Positions 2,474 through 38,934 are shown, numbered from the stretch's first letter. The stretch: DNA of 64,000 bases from Candidatus Micrarchaeota archaeon (GCA_027319905.1 DAHVMJ010000002.1:389-64388), one strand, 5' to 3'. Translations and numbers: made by a program. Notes: generated from the letters alone by a model not told the origin.

Positions 2474-2995
2474 CTATCTACCCTCCCTCAGCCGTCGTTT
2501 CGCCTTCTCCATTATCGCATATGCCTTCTTGTGCGTGCCCCCCTCGAGCAGCACCTCTATCGCAGCCCTCGCTATCCTTATCTCATCGACCGTGCCTATC
2601 ATGCTCACCGTGTCGCCGTATATCGCGAGATCGGCTCCGCTCACGCTCTGCACATAGCTCTTTGTCTTGCCGTCCGTCCCTATGACTCTCGCCTTGATCC
2701 TCTTTATCTGCGCTTCATTATTAAAAAGCTGCTTCATGTCTATGCTTTCGAAGAAGCGTTCGTCGCTGAGCAGCTTGCACGCGGTCTCGAACTCGAACCC
2801 TCGGGCGAACGCCTGCAGAACAACGCGCGCGTTGTACTCCTCTAGGGCGTCGCCGTCTATCAGCAGCTCGTTCTCGTTCCTGACCTCTATCCTGCAGCCG
2901 AGGCGCTTGCGCACGCTATCCATAAGCGTTTTGCCTTTCAGTAGCTCGGCCCTTTTCGTGGGAATGAGGAATTGCTGCAATCCAGACACCAGCAA
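2474..2995 (-). CDS. KH-domain RNA-binding protein (archaeal Dim2/Pno1-like)
   Basis: Two KH-like modules are present (RVIGTDGKTKSYVQSVSGADLAIYGDTVSMIG). Size and layout are typical of the archaeal KH type I RNA-processing protein. Confidence 0.6.
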   Translation of the reverse strand: MLVSGLQQFLIPTKRAELLKGKTLMDSVRKRLGCRIEVRNENELLIDGDALEEYNARVVLQAFARGFEFETACKLLSDERFFESIDMKQLFNNEAQIKRIKARVIGTDGKTKSYVQSVSGADLAIYGDTVSMIGTVDEIRIARAAIEVLLEGGTHKKAYAIMEKAKRRLREGR

Positions 2996-3103
2996 GCGTT
3001 TGCACTATCTTATCTGTGGATATTCTTATAAACATAAAACACCGGAGCGCGAGTCCTGCCATTACCCTGCTGCCAGAACCGGTTTACCGTCGCGCGTCTT
3101 AAC

Positions 3104-3721
3104 ATGAATCTATATAAACGGACAGAGGAGAGTAAGAGCAGTGAAAGGATGTTCGGCCGCGGAAAATCAAAGGAACAGCAGCAGTCATGGGTATCCTCTT
3201 CAGTAGATCTGAAGATAGATCAGGCCAGAAAACTGCTCGACTCAGCTGAGGAACTGGCCTCCAAGGGCAATTTTGTCTCGGCAGCAAGCCAGAGGGATCT
3301 CGCGTTCAAAAGCGTACAGGGAGCGAGTCTTGACGATTCGAGCGAGGTGCTCTATGATATCGCATCGAGCTGGCAGGACGAGGCCGAGGAGCTTCATCCA
3401 TATCCTCCTGATGAGGACGCCGTGCCGCACGGCCACGATGAACGCGATTACACCGCCATGTGCTACCAGAAGGCGGCTGAGGTGTTCCTGTACTCTGGAG
3501 ACACCGACTCGGCCGAAGAACTCTTCGGCGAAGCAGCCGAGATATCTCTGCAGCGCATAGAGTCTGGGAACCAGTTCATGTACAAACCAGAGGATATTGC
3601 GAAGCTGGAGGAAGTGGTCGTGAACTTCAGACGCGCAAACAACGAGGAGATGGCGGATCTGGTATCCAGGAAGATACTCACCCAAAAGACACTCGAGTCA
3701 TTGCGCGACAAGCAACAATAG
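3104..3721 (+). CDS. Hypothetical protein (helical, acidic)
   Basis: Long ORF with coding-like composition and no recognisable motif. An alternative start lies at 3149 (MFGRGKS). Confidence 0.45.
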   Translation: MNLYKRTEESKSSERMFGRGKSKEQQQSWVSSSVDLKIDQARKLLDSAEELASKGNFVSAASQRDLAFKSVQGASLDDSSEVLYDIASSWQDEAEELHPYPPDEDAVPHGHDERDYTAMCYQKAAEVFLYSGDTDSAEELFGEAAEISLQRIESGNQFMYKPEDIAKLEEVVVNFRRANNEEMADLVSRKILTQKTLESLRDKQQ

Positions 3722-3860
3722 ACGAATCCTACGTCGGCAAAATCCATTTTGAGTTTTCAGGGCAGTGCGTCCGCAGATTAGTGGAAGTCTGGAAGCTAGG
3801 CATACATACTCTTCCGCAAAAGCGTAATATTTAAATATCTTAATCTTCACACACATATGA

Positions 3861-4409
3861 TTGTTTCATGATTCTCTCATGAAAGGGTTTGGGGACAATC
3901 AGGAGTGGAGTGGCGCAATGAACAAAAAGCAGATGGAACTTGAGCTGCAAGAGTTGAAGAAGCGCGTCGGAGAGCTGCTTCAGCGGAATAACGCAGACAT
4001 ACCATCAAACCTGAGCACCGAGGGCTGGTACAGATACCTGGGTGAGCAGCGCGAGAAGACAAACATGATACTTACCTCCCTGGGCGAGAGGATGAAGATT
4101 CTGGAAGAGAGCGTTGCAGAGATGGCCTCCGGTGAGGGACAGGCAGAGGTCTATGGTCCGGAGAGCGAGGAACAGGTGGAGCTCTCGGTAGTTGACGTTA
4201 AGATACTAAACTTTGTGCAAACTCAGCCGCAGGGAATGGCCTGCGCCGACGACGTTAGAAAGTACATGGGATACAGAGGCAACAACGCCGCATGCGCGAG
4301 GATGAACAGGCTCAGGGTAATGGGCCTGCTCGTGACGCACAGGCTGGGCCACAAGGTGTATTATGCTGGCAAGGCGACCATGAAACTTATTGTATCACCT
4401 CCACAGTAG
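3861..4409 (+). CDS. Hypothetical protein, N-terminal coiled coil plus C-terminal winged-helix-like domain
   Basis: The C-terminus VKILNFVQTQPQGMACADDVRKYMGYRGNNAACARMNRLRVMGLLV resembles a wHTH. TTG 3861 lies about 27 nt downstream of the centre of a TTTAAATA box. An alternative ATG lies at 3879. Confidence 0.5.
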   Translation: MFHDSLMKGFGDNQEWSGAMNKKQMELELQELKKRVGELLQRNNADIPSNLSTEGWYRYLGEQREKTNMILTSLGERMKILEESVAEMASGEGQAEVYGPESEEQVELSVVDVKILNFVQTQPQGMACADDVRKYMGYRGNNAACARMNRLRVMGLLVTHRLGHKVYYAGKATMKLIVSPPQ

Positions 4410-10894: not shown

Positions 10895-11641
10895 TCAAAA
10901 AAGTACGCGCCGGTAAAGTGACGACATTACCAGCGCAATTATCAGTATGAAGACTAGGCCGGGGAGGAGCGCAAACAGCGGGACCACCACAGTCAGAAGC
11001 AGGAATATGGCAACCATCATGCCCGCGAATACGGGCTTATTCCACCTGTACACCTTGCTGCCGTCAAGGGGCATTATGGGCAGCATGTTGAAGAAAGCGA
11101 GATAGATGCTTATGAATACGATGAAGCTGAACGCCACCTGCAGATAGGAGATGCCTGCGGGAGCCGTGCCGAAGAGCACTCCGGTAACGTTTCTTCCGAA
11201 TCCCGGAAACATCAGACTTCCTAGTGCGAAGAAGACCGCGAATACGGCGAAGTTGGTGAGCGGGCCCGCGAGTGATACATAGCCTTCCTCTTTCCTCGTG
11301 AAGTGCGGCGCATATATCATCGTGGCTCCAGGCAGCCCGATAAGGAATCCGAACATGCTGGTGACAAGAGTTATCATTATGCCGCTATCCGATTTCCTGA
11401 AGGCGGCCATAGCGCCGAAGCGCTGGGCTACGAACTTGTGCATGAGTTCGTGCAGTATGAATGAAAGCGACACCGCCACGAAGGAGATCGGGAGCAGGTA
11501 CAGAAACGCGCCAGGCGAAAGGCCGAAGAGGCCGCCGCCTAGAGCGAGCGCGAAGCCTATGCTGAGCGCCGCATCCGCTATCAGTATGTCCTCTACCTCC
11601 CTGGAGAGTCCTGAACCGTAAGTCACCTGCATAAGAAACAA
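10895..11641 (-). CDS. M50-family (site-2 protease-like) membrane metalloprotease
   Basis: HELMH zinc motif in a polytopic membrane protein, with a downstream NMLPIMPLDG motif. Confidence 0.8.
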   Translation of the reverse strand: MFLMQVTYGSGLSREVEDILIADAALSIGFALALGGGLFGLSPGAFLYLLPISFVAVSLSFILHELMHKFVAQRFGAMAAFRKSDSGIMITLVTSMFGFLIGLPGATMIYAPHFTRKEEGYVSLAGPLTNFAVFAVFFALGSLMFPGFGRNVTGVLFGTAPAGISYLQVAFSFIVFISIYLAFFNMLPIMPLDGSKVYRWNKPVFAGMMVAIFLLLTVVVPLFALLPGLVFILIIALVMSSLYRRVLF

Positions 11642-11690
11642 TAGAATGTAGCTAAAATCTTATTAAATGCAAGCGTAGAATAAGGCTTGC

Positions 11691-36919: not shown

Positions 36920-36940
36920 GGGCCCGTAGCTTAGTCTGGT
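36920..36940 (+). other. Extra copy of the first 21 nt of tRNA-Ile (orphan att-like fragment, or true 5' exon if the insertion is an intron)
   Basis: GGGCCCGTAGCTTAGTCTGGT is the acceptor 5' strand plus D-arm 5' half. Its first 13 nt recur at 38056-38068 and its last 8 nt (one mismatch) recur at 38097-38104. Confidence 0.7.
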
Positions 36941-38055
36941 CGTATATACGTTAGATTTAAATGACTCTGTTACTAAAATAGTCACGATACTTATGAGGTT
37001 TCAATTTGCCAGAGGACAACAAGAAGAGTTTATCAAAACTTTCTTAAAGCAAGAGAGAGTATCCCTCACAACTGCCGCTAGGTTTCTCAGCGTAGGCAAA
37101 ACGACTCTTAAAAGATGGCTAAAAGAAGAGGTCACTCTTCCTGAAACCGCATTTCATACAATTTGCGTTAAAATGCCAGACTTAAGAATCTACAAAAAAC
37201 AGATAATAAAAATACTTCCGGATAATTGGGGTCAAATACAAGGTGGCAGATCGAGGGTTATTCAAATAAAAAACATTAACGAATATCTGAGTTCTGTAAG
37301 AGCTGCTAAAAATAAAAAAAGATTAGTGGCGGCACAAATAACAAAACGCAAGCTTAAATTCTCAAGCCAACTTCTCAACAATCTTATTGAAGATCACGTT
37401 GATCTAGAAGCACTATTAGCCACTTGTTTACTAACTGATGGTTCTCTGACTAGAGACGGTAACAGTTACAGAATAGGATACTATACAAAAGACCAAGCCT
37501 TGCGTAAATTCGTAAAAAGCCTGCTATTTGAGTTAAGCGCCTTTGTGCCTTCAGAAATTCTTACAAAAAAGAGCGTTTACGCAATCAGAGTAAGTGACTA
37601 TCGGCTAGCACAACAACTACTTAGATTGTCGCCGTCATATAAAAAGACAGCAAGGAACCATCAGACGATTAAAAGCTACTTGAAAGAGCGCCAACCTTCT
37701 TTGGCTTTCCTAAAAGAGGCAGATGAAAAAACGATGACCTGGTGCATACGGCTAGCCTTTTCTGCAGAGGGGTCCATCTCAATTTCTCAGAGCAACACTA
37801 TCGAACTTAATTTTGCCTGTTACCATCCTAAGTTGGCCAAGGAGTGGTTAGAGATTTTTAAAAACTACGGATTAGAAGGCCACATCGGCAGAGAAAAGAA
37901 ATCTTGGAGTGGAATTGATGGCGTTAGGGTCTACTCTCTGGCCTCTCTTAAGAATTTTGTCGGATTGGGAGGATTCCTGCCCGGAGTTGTAGTATCCAAC
38001 AAAAGCAAGCGTTATAAAGGCTTAGAGAAAAACGAGGTATTGAATAAAGCCGTAA
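36941..38055 (+). mobile_element. AT-rich insertion carrying a LAGLIDADG homing-endonuclease-like gene, bracketed by repeats of the tRNA-Ile 5' segment
   Basis: Composition is visibly A/T-rich relative to both flanks. It has a single ORF with its own TTTAAAT box and is flanked by direct repeats derived from the tRNA. Confidence 0.6.
36956..36962 (+). promoter_or_regulatory. TATA-box-like element for the LAGLIDADG ORF
   Basis: The centre of TTTAAAT lies about 34 nt upstream of ATG 36993. Confidence 0.35.
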
Positions 38056-38120
38056 GGGCCCGTAGCTTTCCTGTGTCTCGAAAACATGGGGCTGAAAGCC
38101 TGGTTGGAGCGTCCGACTGA
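36993..38120 (+). CDS. Double-motif LAGLIDADG homing-endonuclease-like protein with an N-terminal HTH
   Basis: Two LAGLIDADG-type motifs are present (LLATCLLTDGSL and IRLAFSAEGSI), plus an N-terminal HTH (SLTTAARFLSVGKTTLKRWL). The last 22 codons or so read through the tRNA-Ile sequence. The stop is the TGA inside the anticodon loop cTGAtaa. Confidence 0.7.
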   Translation: MRFQFARGQQEEFIKTFLKQERVSLTTAARFLSVGKTTLKRWLKEEVTLPETAFHTICVKMPDLRIYKKQIIKILPDNWGQIQGGRSRVIQIKNINEYLSSVRAAKNKKRLVAAQITKRKLKFSSQLLNNLIEDHVDLEALLATCLLTDGSLTRDGNSYRIGYYTKDQALRKFVKSLLFELSAFVPSEILTKKSVYAIRVSDYRLAQQLLRLSPSYKKTARNHQTIKSYLKERQPSLAFLKEADEKTMTWCIRLAFSAEGSISISQSNTIELNFACYHPKLAKEWLEIFKNYGLEGHIGREKKSWSGIDGVRVYSLASLKNFVGLGGFLPGVVVSNKSKRYKGLEKNEVLNKAVRARSFPVSRKHGAESLVGASD

Positions 38121-38158
38121 TAATCGGAAGGTCGGGAGTTCAAATCTCCCCGGGCCCA
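38056..38158 (+). tRNA. tRNA-Ile (anticodon GAU), interrupted in the D arm
   Basis: Acceptor GGGCCCG/CGGGCCC plus A73, anticodon stem TCCGA/TCGGA, loop CTGATAA, T arm GGGAG-TTCAAAT-CTCCC. There is either a 28-nt intervening sequence (38069-38096) between GCTT and AGCCTGGTTGGAGC, or the 5' exon lies at 36920-36940. Confidence 0.75.
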
Positions 38159-38226
38159 CTTTTCAAGCGAAAGAATAATAATGGGCGGAAAACAGGAAGA
38201 TGTAATTTCCGAGATTTGGGAGTTTT

Positions 38227-38934
38227 ATGGCTGAAAGGATCGTGGCCACATGCATGGACCGCAGGCTGCCTCAGAAAATAGGTGCCATTGCCGATGGGAT
38301 ACACGTAAGCAACGCCGGCTGCAACATCGCGGCGATGAGGGACACGCTTGTCGCGCTCGCGCGTCAGGACAAGGAGATAAGGGAGATAGTAGCATACGTG
38401 CACACTGACTGCGGTGCAATGGGCGCTGTGGACGATGCGCGGAATGGACACGTGCACAAGTACGGCGGCCGCATAAAACACACACTTCTAGACGTATTCA
38501 TGGGAAGGAGCTGGAAAGGCCGCGATGACCTGGAAAGACGCGAGAACGTTGGCGTGCAGCTGAAGGCGCTGGAGGAGATACCCGCTCTGGTGGGCAGAGA
38601 GATAGCGGTAAGGGTTGAGCTGATAGAGACAAGCGCGATAAAAGTGCCGGAGATCGACCATAGCGAGTTTGCGCTTCTTATCCTCAAGCCATCCGAATCT
38701 TCTGTGCCTGAGGCGATATCAAAAGCAGGTCTAAAGCAGTTCGCCACGTATGTTGTACAGCTTCTGAATGTGAGCGAGGCTCTCGGTGACATAGAGCTCA
38801 CGATAAACAACCTTCACGTCGGCCGCGTTGTACTGGGAGTCGCGGCGTCGTCCAAAGCCCAGACGCTCTCTGACAAGCAGACCCTAAAATCCGCATTCCC
38901 AAATCTGGAGCCTGAAGAGGCTTACGTGGAATAA
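38227..38934 (+). CDS. Beta-class carbonic anhydrase (Cab/clade D)-like protein with an extra C-terminal domain
   Basis: TCMDRRL (CxDxR), VSNAGC and VHTDCGAM (HxxC) occur with the spacing seen in clade-D beta-CAs. The C-terminal 120 aa or so are unassigned. Confidence 0.5.
   Translation: MAERIVATCMDRRLPQKIGAIADGIHVSNAGCNIAAMRDTLVALARQDKEIREIVAYVHTDCGAMGAVDDARNGHVHKYGGRIKHTLLDVFMGRSWKGRDDLERRENVGVQLKALEEIPALVGREIAVRVELIETSAIKVPEIDHSEFALLILKPSESSVPEAISKAGLKQFATYVVQLLNVSEALGDIELTINNLHVGRVVLGVAASSKAQTLSDKQTLKSAFPNLEPEEAYVE

Follow-up and report, generated by a model that had tools for sequence, protein, structure and literature searches.

A LAGLIDADG endonuclease cassette and a bulge-helix-bulge mini-intron at a tRNA-Ile(GAU) gene of a Micrarchaeota archaeon: probable insertion with rebuilding of the target gene

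The tRNA-Ile(GAU) gene discussed here comes from a Candidatus Micrarchaeota archaeon (GCA_027319905.1, DAHVMJ010000002.1:389-64388). It lies in a stretch of 64,000 nucleotides, referred to below as the window, and its parts are spread over positions 36,920 to 38,158. Between two copies of the tRNA 5' segment lies an insertion of 1.1 kb that encodes a LAGLIDADG endonuclease. We propose, with a probability of roughly 0.6, that a homing endonuclease gene (HEG) cassette invaded the tRNA-Ile(GAU) gene and that this endonuclease-driven insertion heals its target with a replacement 5' segment. The cassette would sit after linear nucleotide 21 of the tRNA, in the D-loop, and would not be spliced out as a single intron. 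Its right end would instead carry its own copy of tRNA nucleotides 1-21, which rebuilds a complete gene downstream and leaves the native nucleotides 1-21 stranded. The stranded segment is called the relic throughout.

The evidence begins with the anatomy of the locus, all of which is read on the + strand. The relic is GGGCCCGTAGCTTAGTCTGGT at 36920-36940, corresponding to linear nucleotides 1-21 and ending in CTGGT. It follows the native tRNA-Ile promoter block GGAAAACAATTATAATCT (36882-36899). Compared with uninterrupted tRNA-Ile alleles (loci L098, L127, L115 and L044, described below), the whole insertion is 1,164 nt long (36941-38104). Its parts are, in order, the cassette left end (36941-36992, with CGTATATACGTTA at 36941-36953), the HEG (36993-38120), replacement tRNA nucleotides 1-13, a mini-intron and nucleotides 14-21. 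The downstream copy of the tRNA 5' end, GGGCCCGTAGCTT at 38056-38068, forms an exact 13-nt direct repeat at a distance of 1,136 nt from the first copy. After it come 28 nt (38069-38096), then AGCCTGGTTGGAGCG and the rest of the tRNA to 38158. A direct tRNA repeat therefore stands at both borders with the gene rebuilt (36920-36940 versus 38056-38068 plus 38097-38104). The only match to the spliced 5' 21-mer in the 64 kb, allowing up to three mismatches, is the relic (0 expected from 100 shuffles). The two differ by a single mismatch in the D-loop, where the relic has a T and the downstream copy a C. The original prediction, made from this DNA alone, had described these 21-nt and 13-nt copies, the spacer between exon parts and the one-base difference between the two possible products, and a reading of the sequence bears out each of these points together with their coordinates. 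It had also described an A/T-rich segment between the copies with its own TTTAAAT box. The drop in GC content is real: the value goes down from about 0.55 to 0.34-0.44 over the insert, and for 36941-38104 it is 0.34-0.46 versus about 0.50-0.60 in the flanks. The AT-rich, foreign-like composition of the cassette contrasts with that of its surroundings, and the box is found at 36956-36962.

Joining 38056-38068 to 38097-38158 gives a 75-nt tRNA-Ile(GAU) cloverleaf. The functional exon 1 holds nucleotides 1-13 (the acceptor 5' strand, U8, A9 and the D-stem 5' strand), and exon 2 holds nucleotides 14-75 (the D-loop, anticodon arm, T arm and acceptor 3' strand). The anticodon GAT lies at 38119-38121 and the discriminator base is A38158; no CCA is encoded. 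Seven of seven acceptor pairs are formed between the downstream exon 1 and 38151-38157. The first 27 nt of the spliced product are those of most of at least 118 uninterrupted archaeal tRNA-Ile alleles (metagenomic, among the matches listed). ARAGORN and Rfam find only a degraded tRNA-Ile at 38088-38158/9 (41 bits), because the intron-derived GGGGCTG is taken as the acceptor strand. At the related loci L001, L004 and L005, ARAGORN reports no tRNA. Automated annotation will thus miss or mis-bound tRNA-Ile in such genomes.

The spacer of 28 nt (38069-38096) interrupts the tRNA at position 13/14 and has the features of a bulge-helix-bulge (BHB) intron. The published BHB motif consists of a 4-bp helix between two 3-nt bulges; in the intron at position 37/38 this helix holds the first two anticodon bases, which places cleavage after the second bulge nucleotide (PMC4090602). 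In the window, the central helix is formed by tRNA U8-C11 (38063-38066) and GCUG (38091-38094), giving four pairs (UAGC/GCUG). The bulges are UU|U (38067-38069) and AA|A (38095-38097). An inner helix of 7 bp (38070-38076 with 38084-38090) closes a 7-nt loop (38077-38083). In this register the predicted cuts fall at 38068/69 and 38096/97, after the second nucleotide of each bulge. The same register was found in nine main-clade loci, and the inner helix of relatives measures 4-12 bp. The outer helix has 0 bp, and the motif is of the relaxed HBh' kind.

Support for the motif comes from covariation. Eleven homologous loci were aligned in the BHB register, with constructs trimmed around the motif. 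Across these loci 87.9% of cells pair, 11 of the 12 pairs have changed on both sides, and none of 500 shuffles was as good. When the partner strand was slid by 1-3 columns, pairing fell to 29-44%. Plain minimum free energy folding of the pre-tRNA (38056-38158) returned neither the BHB nor the cloverleaf. The register and the covariation support the view of the spacer as a near-canonical BHB intron at 13/14. The archaeal splicing endonuclease and ligase should remove this 28-nt intron, and the predicted mature tRNA consists of 38056-38068 joined to 38097-38158. In ARMAN-2 (Micrarchaeum), a broad-specificity epsilon2 EndA has been shown to cut relaxed motifs (PMC3239211). By analogy, that enzyme and the many disrupted tRNA genes of ARMAN-2 would fit the relaxed motif seen here.

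Empty sites indicate which of the two 5' copies is native. A metagenome scan for tRNA-Ile 5' halves gave at least 118 matches; those listed are uninterrupted tRNA-Ile 5' halves only, and no homologue of the homing endonuclease (HE) lies near any of them. Comparison of the same locus in insertion-free relatives, which had been suggested as a check, gave an uninterrupted tRNA-Ile at the same spot, directly after orthologues of the same flanking genes, in four syntenic contigs (L098, L127, L115 and L044). At L098, an orthologue of the window's 506-aa exosortase-like gene (48.6% identity) is followed by an intact tRNA-Ile. The promoter block there, GGAAAACAAATATAATCT, is near-identical to that of the window and lies at an equal distance from +1. 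Furthermore, D-loop position 16 of L098 is a T as in the relic, whereas the downstream copy has a C. The contexts of L127 and L115 match that of the occupied locus L018, and L044 matches the AMMECR1 context of L001, L013, L014, L140 and L143. In terms of flank-protein identity, empty and occupied genomes interleave, with empty L098 at 49% to the window and occupied L004 at 41%. The syntenic empty alleles, together with the promoter and the D-loop T of L098, imply that the gene's native 5' end, still at its native promoter, is the upstream segment of 21 nt. The 5' part with the intron is then best read as the one that came with the cassette.

The arrangement is not restricted to the window. Its protein has about 20 full-length homologues (identity 35-58%), and an HE profile search gave 86 cluster representatives at E <=1e-30. 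The GTDB labels of carriers are Candidatus Micrarchaeota, Woesearchaeota and Iainarchaeum, with one short contig binned as Chloroflexota. Loci of twelve homologues were compared together with loci from the genome scan. The cassette, made up of promoter, HEG, tRNA nucleotides 1-13, mini-intron and nucleotides 14-21, was found in at least 12 loci assigned to Micrarchaeota and other DPANN archaea. The layout of the window is repeated in eight further loci (L001, L004, L005, L012/L010, L013, L018, L139/140 and L141). These share some 21 nt of tRNA 5' sequence without an intron and with GGT as the last bases, then NATTTRTACGTTA..TTTAAAT, then the HEG, and finally a complete tRNA-Ile(GAU) split at 13/14 by a 22-37-nt BHB insert. 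The element NATTTRTACGTTA..(A)TTTAAAT follows the GGT of the relic in the window and in L001, L004, L005, L012, L018, L139, L141 and L143.

The position of the mini-intron varies by HE clade. It lies at 13/14 in the loci above, at 15/16 in L008 and L142 (central helix GCUU/GAGC), and at 9/10 in L015, where a 16-nt BHB insert interrupts a tRNA-Ile(UAU). In every case it falls within the duplicated 5' segment. The 13/14 intron is present in nine of 11 main-clade loci versus none of 118 HEG-less alleles (among the matches listed). Two loci, L014 and L143, are without a D-arm insert and have altered D-loop centres, GGTTTGG and GGTCAGCAGC. A search for carriers of the family in IMG/VR, PLSDB and INPHARED returned no relatives.

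The open reading frame (ORF) at 36993-38120 encodes 375 aa. LAGLIDADG_3 of Pfam matches it in two stretches with 30.5 bits against a cut-off of 22.5 (E 4.5e-7). An AlphaFold (AF2) model built on 20 homologues has a mean confidence (pLDDT) of 89.4. Foldseek against the PDB returned WhiA, I-Tsp061I, PI-PfuI, I-SceI and many I-DmoI entries, with a target-normalised TM score of about 0.7 for I-DmoI. The HE profile gave no match to PDB sequences, and only the structure comparison was informative. Asp149 (in LLTDGS; codon 37437-37439) is invariant among the 20 homologues. The acidic residue of the second motif, AFS(T/A)D/E259GS, is D in at least 90% of these homologues and E259 in the window (codon 37767-37769). 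Ahead of the LAGLIDADG core lies an N-terminal helical extension of about 130 aa with segments like a helix-turn-helix (HTH) and an invariant NWG..KGG motif. The Pfam score and the fold agree with the earlier proposal of a LAGLIDADG ORF with an N-terminal HTH. On the basis of sequence and model, the protein is taken to be a monomeric two-motif LAGLIDADG enzyme with intact catalytic residues.

The C-terminal end of the ORF runs into the tRNA gene. Its TGA stop (38118-38120) overlaps the anticodon GAT at 38119-38121. Residues 359-375 are the stretch translated from tRNA and intron; they have a pLDDT below 50 and are disordered. The real protein probably ends near residue 354-358, and the tail is a translation of tRNA nucleotides 1-13, the mini-intron and part of exon 2. 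In most family members, the ORF ends in RARSF, GP or GPVA, the tRNA 5' end translated in its three frames. The overlap of HEG and tRNA is therefore family-wide, with the HEG running into the tRNA at almost all of the cassette loci. The stop at the TGA of the anticodon loop, which the original prediction had pointed out, is confirmed in the window and appears incidental, as the stop of most homologues falls within the mini-intron or is the TAG of the tRNA itself.

The promoters of the locus were considered by comparing TATA-box regions in the window (11630-11690, 32565-32625 and 36860-36919) and upstream of tRNA-Ile in L098, L115, L044 and L035. A TATA-like AATTATAAT (36889-36897) ends 22 nt before the first base of the relic. 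The box of the window's tRNA-Gln ends about 21 nt before +1, those of syntenic uninterrupted tRNA-Ile genes end 21-23 nt before +1, and that of tRNA-Cys is ambiguous. This spacing implies near-leaderless tRNA transcripts in this lineage, which is reminiscent of Nanoarchaeum. The TTTAAAT box of the cassette lies 30 nt before the ATG of the HEG, and the cassette left end is presumed to be the HEG promoter, giving a near-leaderless mRNA. The TATA-like element nearest to the downstream tRNA is TTATAAAGG (38012-38020), which lies in the HEG codons for R-Y-K-G, 35 nt before +1. It was considered as a speculative internal tRNA promoter and rejected as too far upstream for the near-leaderless tRNA promoters of this lineage. 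A DNA block (A/T)TATAAAGG occurs at constant spacing in main-clade loci. Since the downstream copy has no suitably placed box, its tRNA must be trimmed from a longer transcript. On this arrangement of sequence elements, tRNA expression appears to have been captured by a selfish cassette.

A mechanism in four steps can be proposed. The endonuclease would cut uninterrupted tRNA-Ile genes in or near the D-arm. The break would then be repaired from an occupied allele, the relic acting as left arm (21 nt, with additional flank inside one species) and the tRNA body of about 54 nt as right arm, and the cassette would be copied in as a result. After insertion, the mini-intron and the truncation of the relic would leave only partial target sites and so confer immunity from self-cleavage. 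Alternatively or in addition, the mini-intron may lower cassette deletion by breaking the 21-nt direct repeat. Finally, the tRNA would be made from a transcript starting at the HEG promoter or the native promoter, and 5' trimming would be needed. A target centred at about nucleotides 14-18 would be split on both sides, by the mini-intron and by the relic truncation. Such a target would account for the constant placement of the mini-intron within the duplicated segment, be it at 9/10, 13/14 or 15/16, and for the altered D-loop centres of the intron-less L014 and L143. More broadly, LAGLIDADG cassettes of DPANN archaea could spread by cutting conserved tRNA genes (Ile-GAU, Ile-UAU and possibly Ala-CGC), each carrying a 5' segment and an immunity mini-intron of its own, and could be a source of tRNA introns and orphan fragments. 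This generalization is tentative, and we regard it as possible rather than probable.

Several observations weigh against the proposed mechanism. We infer the target site and the cut position. If the cut lies at 21/22, the 13/14 intron changes only the outer 3 bp or so of a 22-bp site; a role in immunity thus needs a site centred nearer to nucleotides 14-18. The homology arms (21 nt and about 54 nt) are short for homing across species. Host-specific acceptor variants (GGGCGGG and GGGCTCG) are common to relic and downstream copy at L141 and L012/L010, which points to gene conversion, spread within a lineage or duplication in situ rather than import of a foreign 5' part. In L014 and L143 the HEG seems intact although the intron is absent, and HEG-less alleles that bear the intron may occur beyond the matches listed. 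The HE tree is star-like and uninformative with respect to the synteny groups, so vertical and horizontal spread are inseparable. Because the outer helix is absent, splicing would require a broad-specificity endonuclease. The downstream tRNA is without a TATA box at the -25 to -30 typical of the lineage's tRNAs. Lastly, the best Foldseek match of the protein is WhiA, a non-nuclease derivative of the LAGLIDADG fold.

The rival explanations differ first in which 5' copy is used. The original prediction offered as one model a D-loop intron of about 1164 nt carrying a homing endonuclease, in which 36941-38104 would be removed and 36920-36940 joined to 38105-38158. The upstream copy of the window is perfect (seven of seven acceptor pairs) and stands at the native promoter in a near-leaderless position, so its use would solve the problem of the tRNA 5' end. 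HEG-bearing BHB introns are also found in archaeal rRNA, for instance those of I-Tsp061I and I-DmoI. The junctions that the model requires, however, form no BHB. A geometry scan of 2,750 junction pairs (5' side 36915-36964, 3' side 38060-38114) gave nothing above chance for a product of tRNA length; the model's own junctions (36940/41 and 38104/05), the best candidate for a 75-nt product, have a 4-bp helix with 1+0 flanking pairs, and 76 of the 2,750 junction pairs also have a 4-bp helix. When both junction sets were examined for BHB motifs, as had been recommended, those of the 28-nt intron formed a BHB in register analysis and those of the 1,164-nt segment did not. A ribozyme is absent as well: Rfam's intron models, group I as well as group II, gave no hit in 36700-38400 at the gathering threshold or at E <=1, and the ORF covers all but 52 nt (36941-36992) of the cassette ahead of the rebuilt tRNA. 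Relics equivalent to that of the window are present in 11 related loci in varying states of decay. They are near-perfect in the window, L001 and L012, and in L004, L014, L018 and L143 they have decayed to AGACCT.../GCTCCT... with four or five of seven acceptor pairs, which makes an acceptor stem with the upstream copy impossible. The downstream copy of related loci always forms six or seven of seven. The giant-intron model would also leave the conservation of the internal copy, its BHB and the covariation without a reason. The decayed relics, the intact downstream copies and the lack of a BHB at the ends of the 1,164 nt together lead to rejection of this model, which we consider hardly credible. 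The second model of the original prediction, a tRNA with a 28-nt D-arm intron and an upstream mobile cassette, holds for the intron and the cassette; the upstream 21 nt, taken there as a duplicate made by the cassette, are instead the native 5' end. As an exon the relic is probably non-functional; it may act as the left homology arm or form the 5' untranslated region of the HEG transcript.

Other explanations accept the downstream copy and differ in how it came about or in what it does. The LAGLIDADG protein may have been domesticated as a WhiA-like regulator or a maturase-like RNA cofactor, with HEG and tRNA forming an old, vertically inherited pair and the relic being the fossil of a single event. 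The top structural match to WhiA, the N-terminal HTH extension, intact ORFs kept across deep lineages at 37-60% identity, the apparent dependence of the tRNA on cassette-driven transcription and the heavy decay of several relics would all agree with this view. Against it, both catalytic acidic residues are conserved; WhiA is not known to possess them. Presence is patchy among equally related genomes, the near-perfect relics of the window, L001 and L012 argue for recent events, and the cassette is AT-rich and foreign-like. Domestication is therefore judged unlikely. A further possibility is that the borders are of the att type and that the cassette is the eroded remnant of an integrase-mediated integration, with the LAGLIDADG gene as a passenger. 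Direct tRNA repeats at the borders with a rebuilt gene are a hallmark of such integrations (PMC3293823), and a foreign base composition would be expected under this view too. Yet neither an integrase nor any other gene lies between the repeats in any two-border locus (main-clade loci, L015 and L142), and the HEG itself has no integrase domain. The cassette is always about 1.1 kb with a HEG overlapping the tRNA, the HE family as a whole tracks tRNA genes, and no relatives came from the three element databases. Independent erosion to the same minimal unit in many lineages would be improbable, and this origin is considered quite unlikely. The poor performance of standard tRNA finders at the locus could also mean that the gene is a dead pseudogene and that a separate, intact tRNA-Ile(GAU) elsewhere does the work. 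Such an outcome is very improbable, because the downstream copy is a perfect cloverleaf matching functional alleles, the compensatory BHB changes across 11 loci imply selection for splicing, and the acceptor stems stay complementary even where host-specific variants occur. The preferred reading thus remains invasion by a HEG cassette that rebuilds the tRNA-Ile gene it interrupts.

Additional observations were made at loci of the same family. L144, the whole contig that also holds L141, carries a second LAGLIDADG paralogue of 338 aa (2757-3880, - strand) whose N-terminus has the HTH/NWGQIKG layout. Some 30 nt downstream of this gene is a tRNA-Ala(CGC) (G3:U70) with an insert of about 13 nt near 25/26, whose BHB is relaxed (three of four central pairs). 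This arrangement suggests a spread of the family to other tRNAs. Upstream of this second HEG a tRNA-Ala relic was sought and the candidate discarded: the sole local alignment falls at the HEG start codon, outside the candidate region, and has no statistical support. At L009 (about 3550-3640), from an Iainarchaeum metagenome-assembled genome, an HE homologue and a tRNA-Ile(GAT) without intron lie on opposite strands in convergent orientation, with no relic visible. The C-termini of two distant members, P0044 and P0050, resemble read-through of reverse-complemented tRNA T-arms. The convergent layout of L009 and these tails imply that the head-to-tail layout is not common to all members. At L142 (about 1380-1490 and 2570-2790), the downstream tRNA-Ile has at least three inserts (at 15/16, in the anticodon stem region and a long one after the anticodon). 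Upstream of the HEG there, a T-arm-like sequence carries an insert; the HEG start codon is inside the relic. At L141 (about 2690-2800, equal to L144 6030-6139), a second tRNA with an intron of about 35 nt directly follows the tRNA-Ile; the ARAGORN label of 'tRNA-Stop(tta)' for it is probably wrong. A canonical 37/38 intron of 12-34 nt occurs in many of these tRNA-Ile genes, occupied and empty, and is absent from that of the window. Its sites include L001 (4134-4167), L004 (4134-4158), L139 (about 1583-1598), L014 (about 3621-3632) and L098. In L001 and L004, the two that were checked, its central helix has three of four pairs with an A35 mismatch.

Two further ORFs of the window lie near the insertion or across its left border. 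The 506-aa ORF upstream (35362-36882) encodes a multi-pass membrane protein, and its orthologues in L004, L018 and L005 match Exosortase_EpsH (PF09721); it is likely an archaeosortase-type protein. The order of exosortase gene followed by tRNA-Ile is kept in several lineages. Apart from the HEG, no ORF of 50 aa or more is fully inside 36941-38104. An antisense ORF of 81 aa (36740-36985) overlaps both the relic and the left end of the cassette.

The locus and its relatives offer a recurrent comparative case with an identifiable enzyme, defined borders and empty sites, and with a proposed logic of cut, heal and protect. The design points to one way in which odd tRNA introns and orphan tRNA fragments might originate. 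If the proposal is true, it would provide a first mechanistic link from homing endonucleases to the gain of archaeal tRNA introns, and orphan 5' fragments of this kind would be raw material of split tRNAs. There are practical consequences as well. Annotations of DPANN genomes would list an apparently essential tRNA-Ile as missing or with wrong boundaries, and the relic could be mistaken for the half of a split tRNA. Dependence of tRNA expression on a selfish cassette would be an unusual dependency.

Several known systems share parts of this arrangement. The archaeal rRNA BHB introns of the I-DmoI, I-Tsp061I and I-PorI type have in common with the present locus the enzyme fold, the use of host splicing machinery and a conserved stable-RNA target. 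Those introns contain the HEG, which is removed together with the intron by splicing, whereas here the HEG lies outside and upstream, and the intron is a separate unit of 22-37 nt. In the 'collaborative homing' of phages (T-odd and T7-like), a free-standing HEG neighbours a HEG-less intron that splits the target, and both travel together. The likeness is one of logic only: a HEG adjoins an interrupted gene, and the immunity proposed for the tRNA locus would be of the same kind. In the phages the introns are self-splicing group I introns, the interrupted genes code for proteins and no exon segment is duplicated, while a protein-spliced BHB intron and a replacement exon piece are found here. Elements of the SSV1/pNOB8 type encode tyrosine-recombinase integrases and are many kilobases long. 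No integrase was found between the repeats, either among the ORFs of the window and the domains of the HEG or among the called genes of related loci. The integration of SSV1 and pNOB8 nevertheless shares with the present locus a tRNA target, a tRNA segment repeated at the borders and a reconstituted gene (PMC3293823).

Non-canonical tRNA introns provide another comparison. In ARMAN-2/Micrarchaeum, 56% of tRNA genes are disrupted, with short non-canonical introns and strict or relaxed BHB motifs (PMC3239211; PMC4090602). The non-canonical tRNA introns of ARMAN-2 and Thermoproteales resemble the present one in shortness, position and BHB; the difference is that the intron here is tied to a HEG cassette. 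The origin of non-canonical archaeal tRNA introns has been left unexplained, and transposition has been proposed without a mechanism (PMC4090602). In the literature searched, no description of an association between LAGLIDADG proteins and tRNA genes in DPANN archaea was found, and the sole concrete case linking a mobile element with intron gain was that of Caldiarchaeum subterraneum (PMC3293823). There the tRNA-Thr(GGU) locus consists of tRNA-Thr-F (nucleotides 1-27), a 1,868-bp insertion and tRNA-Thr-II (Sugahara et al., 2012; PMC3293823). The insertion contains one ORF that abuts the rebuilt tRNA, and the replacement 5' segment has an extra BHB intron at 24/25 (PMC3293823). The ORF was assigned to 'DNA-binding/recombination' by SVMProt only, and the event was read as an integration of the pNOB8 type (PMC3293823). 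This locus is the closest precedent. It shares with the window an orphan 5' fragment, one same-strand ORF beside the tRNA, an extra intron in the duplicated segment and a foreign composition, the likeness being judged by the published layout. The cassette described here differs in that it encodes a clear LAGLIDADG enzyme, is 1.1 kb rather than 1,868 bp long, and overlaps the tRNA. Furthermore, Caldiarchaeum represents one population-level example, whereas for the present family at least 12 diverged DPANN loci are known, together with empty sites and covariation of the BHB. The parts themselves, a homing endonuclease, a BHB intron and the disruption of a tRNA gene by a mobile element, are known; to the Caldiarchaeum layout the present family adds recurrence across DPANN lineages and an identifiable enzyme.

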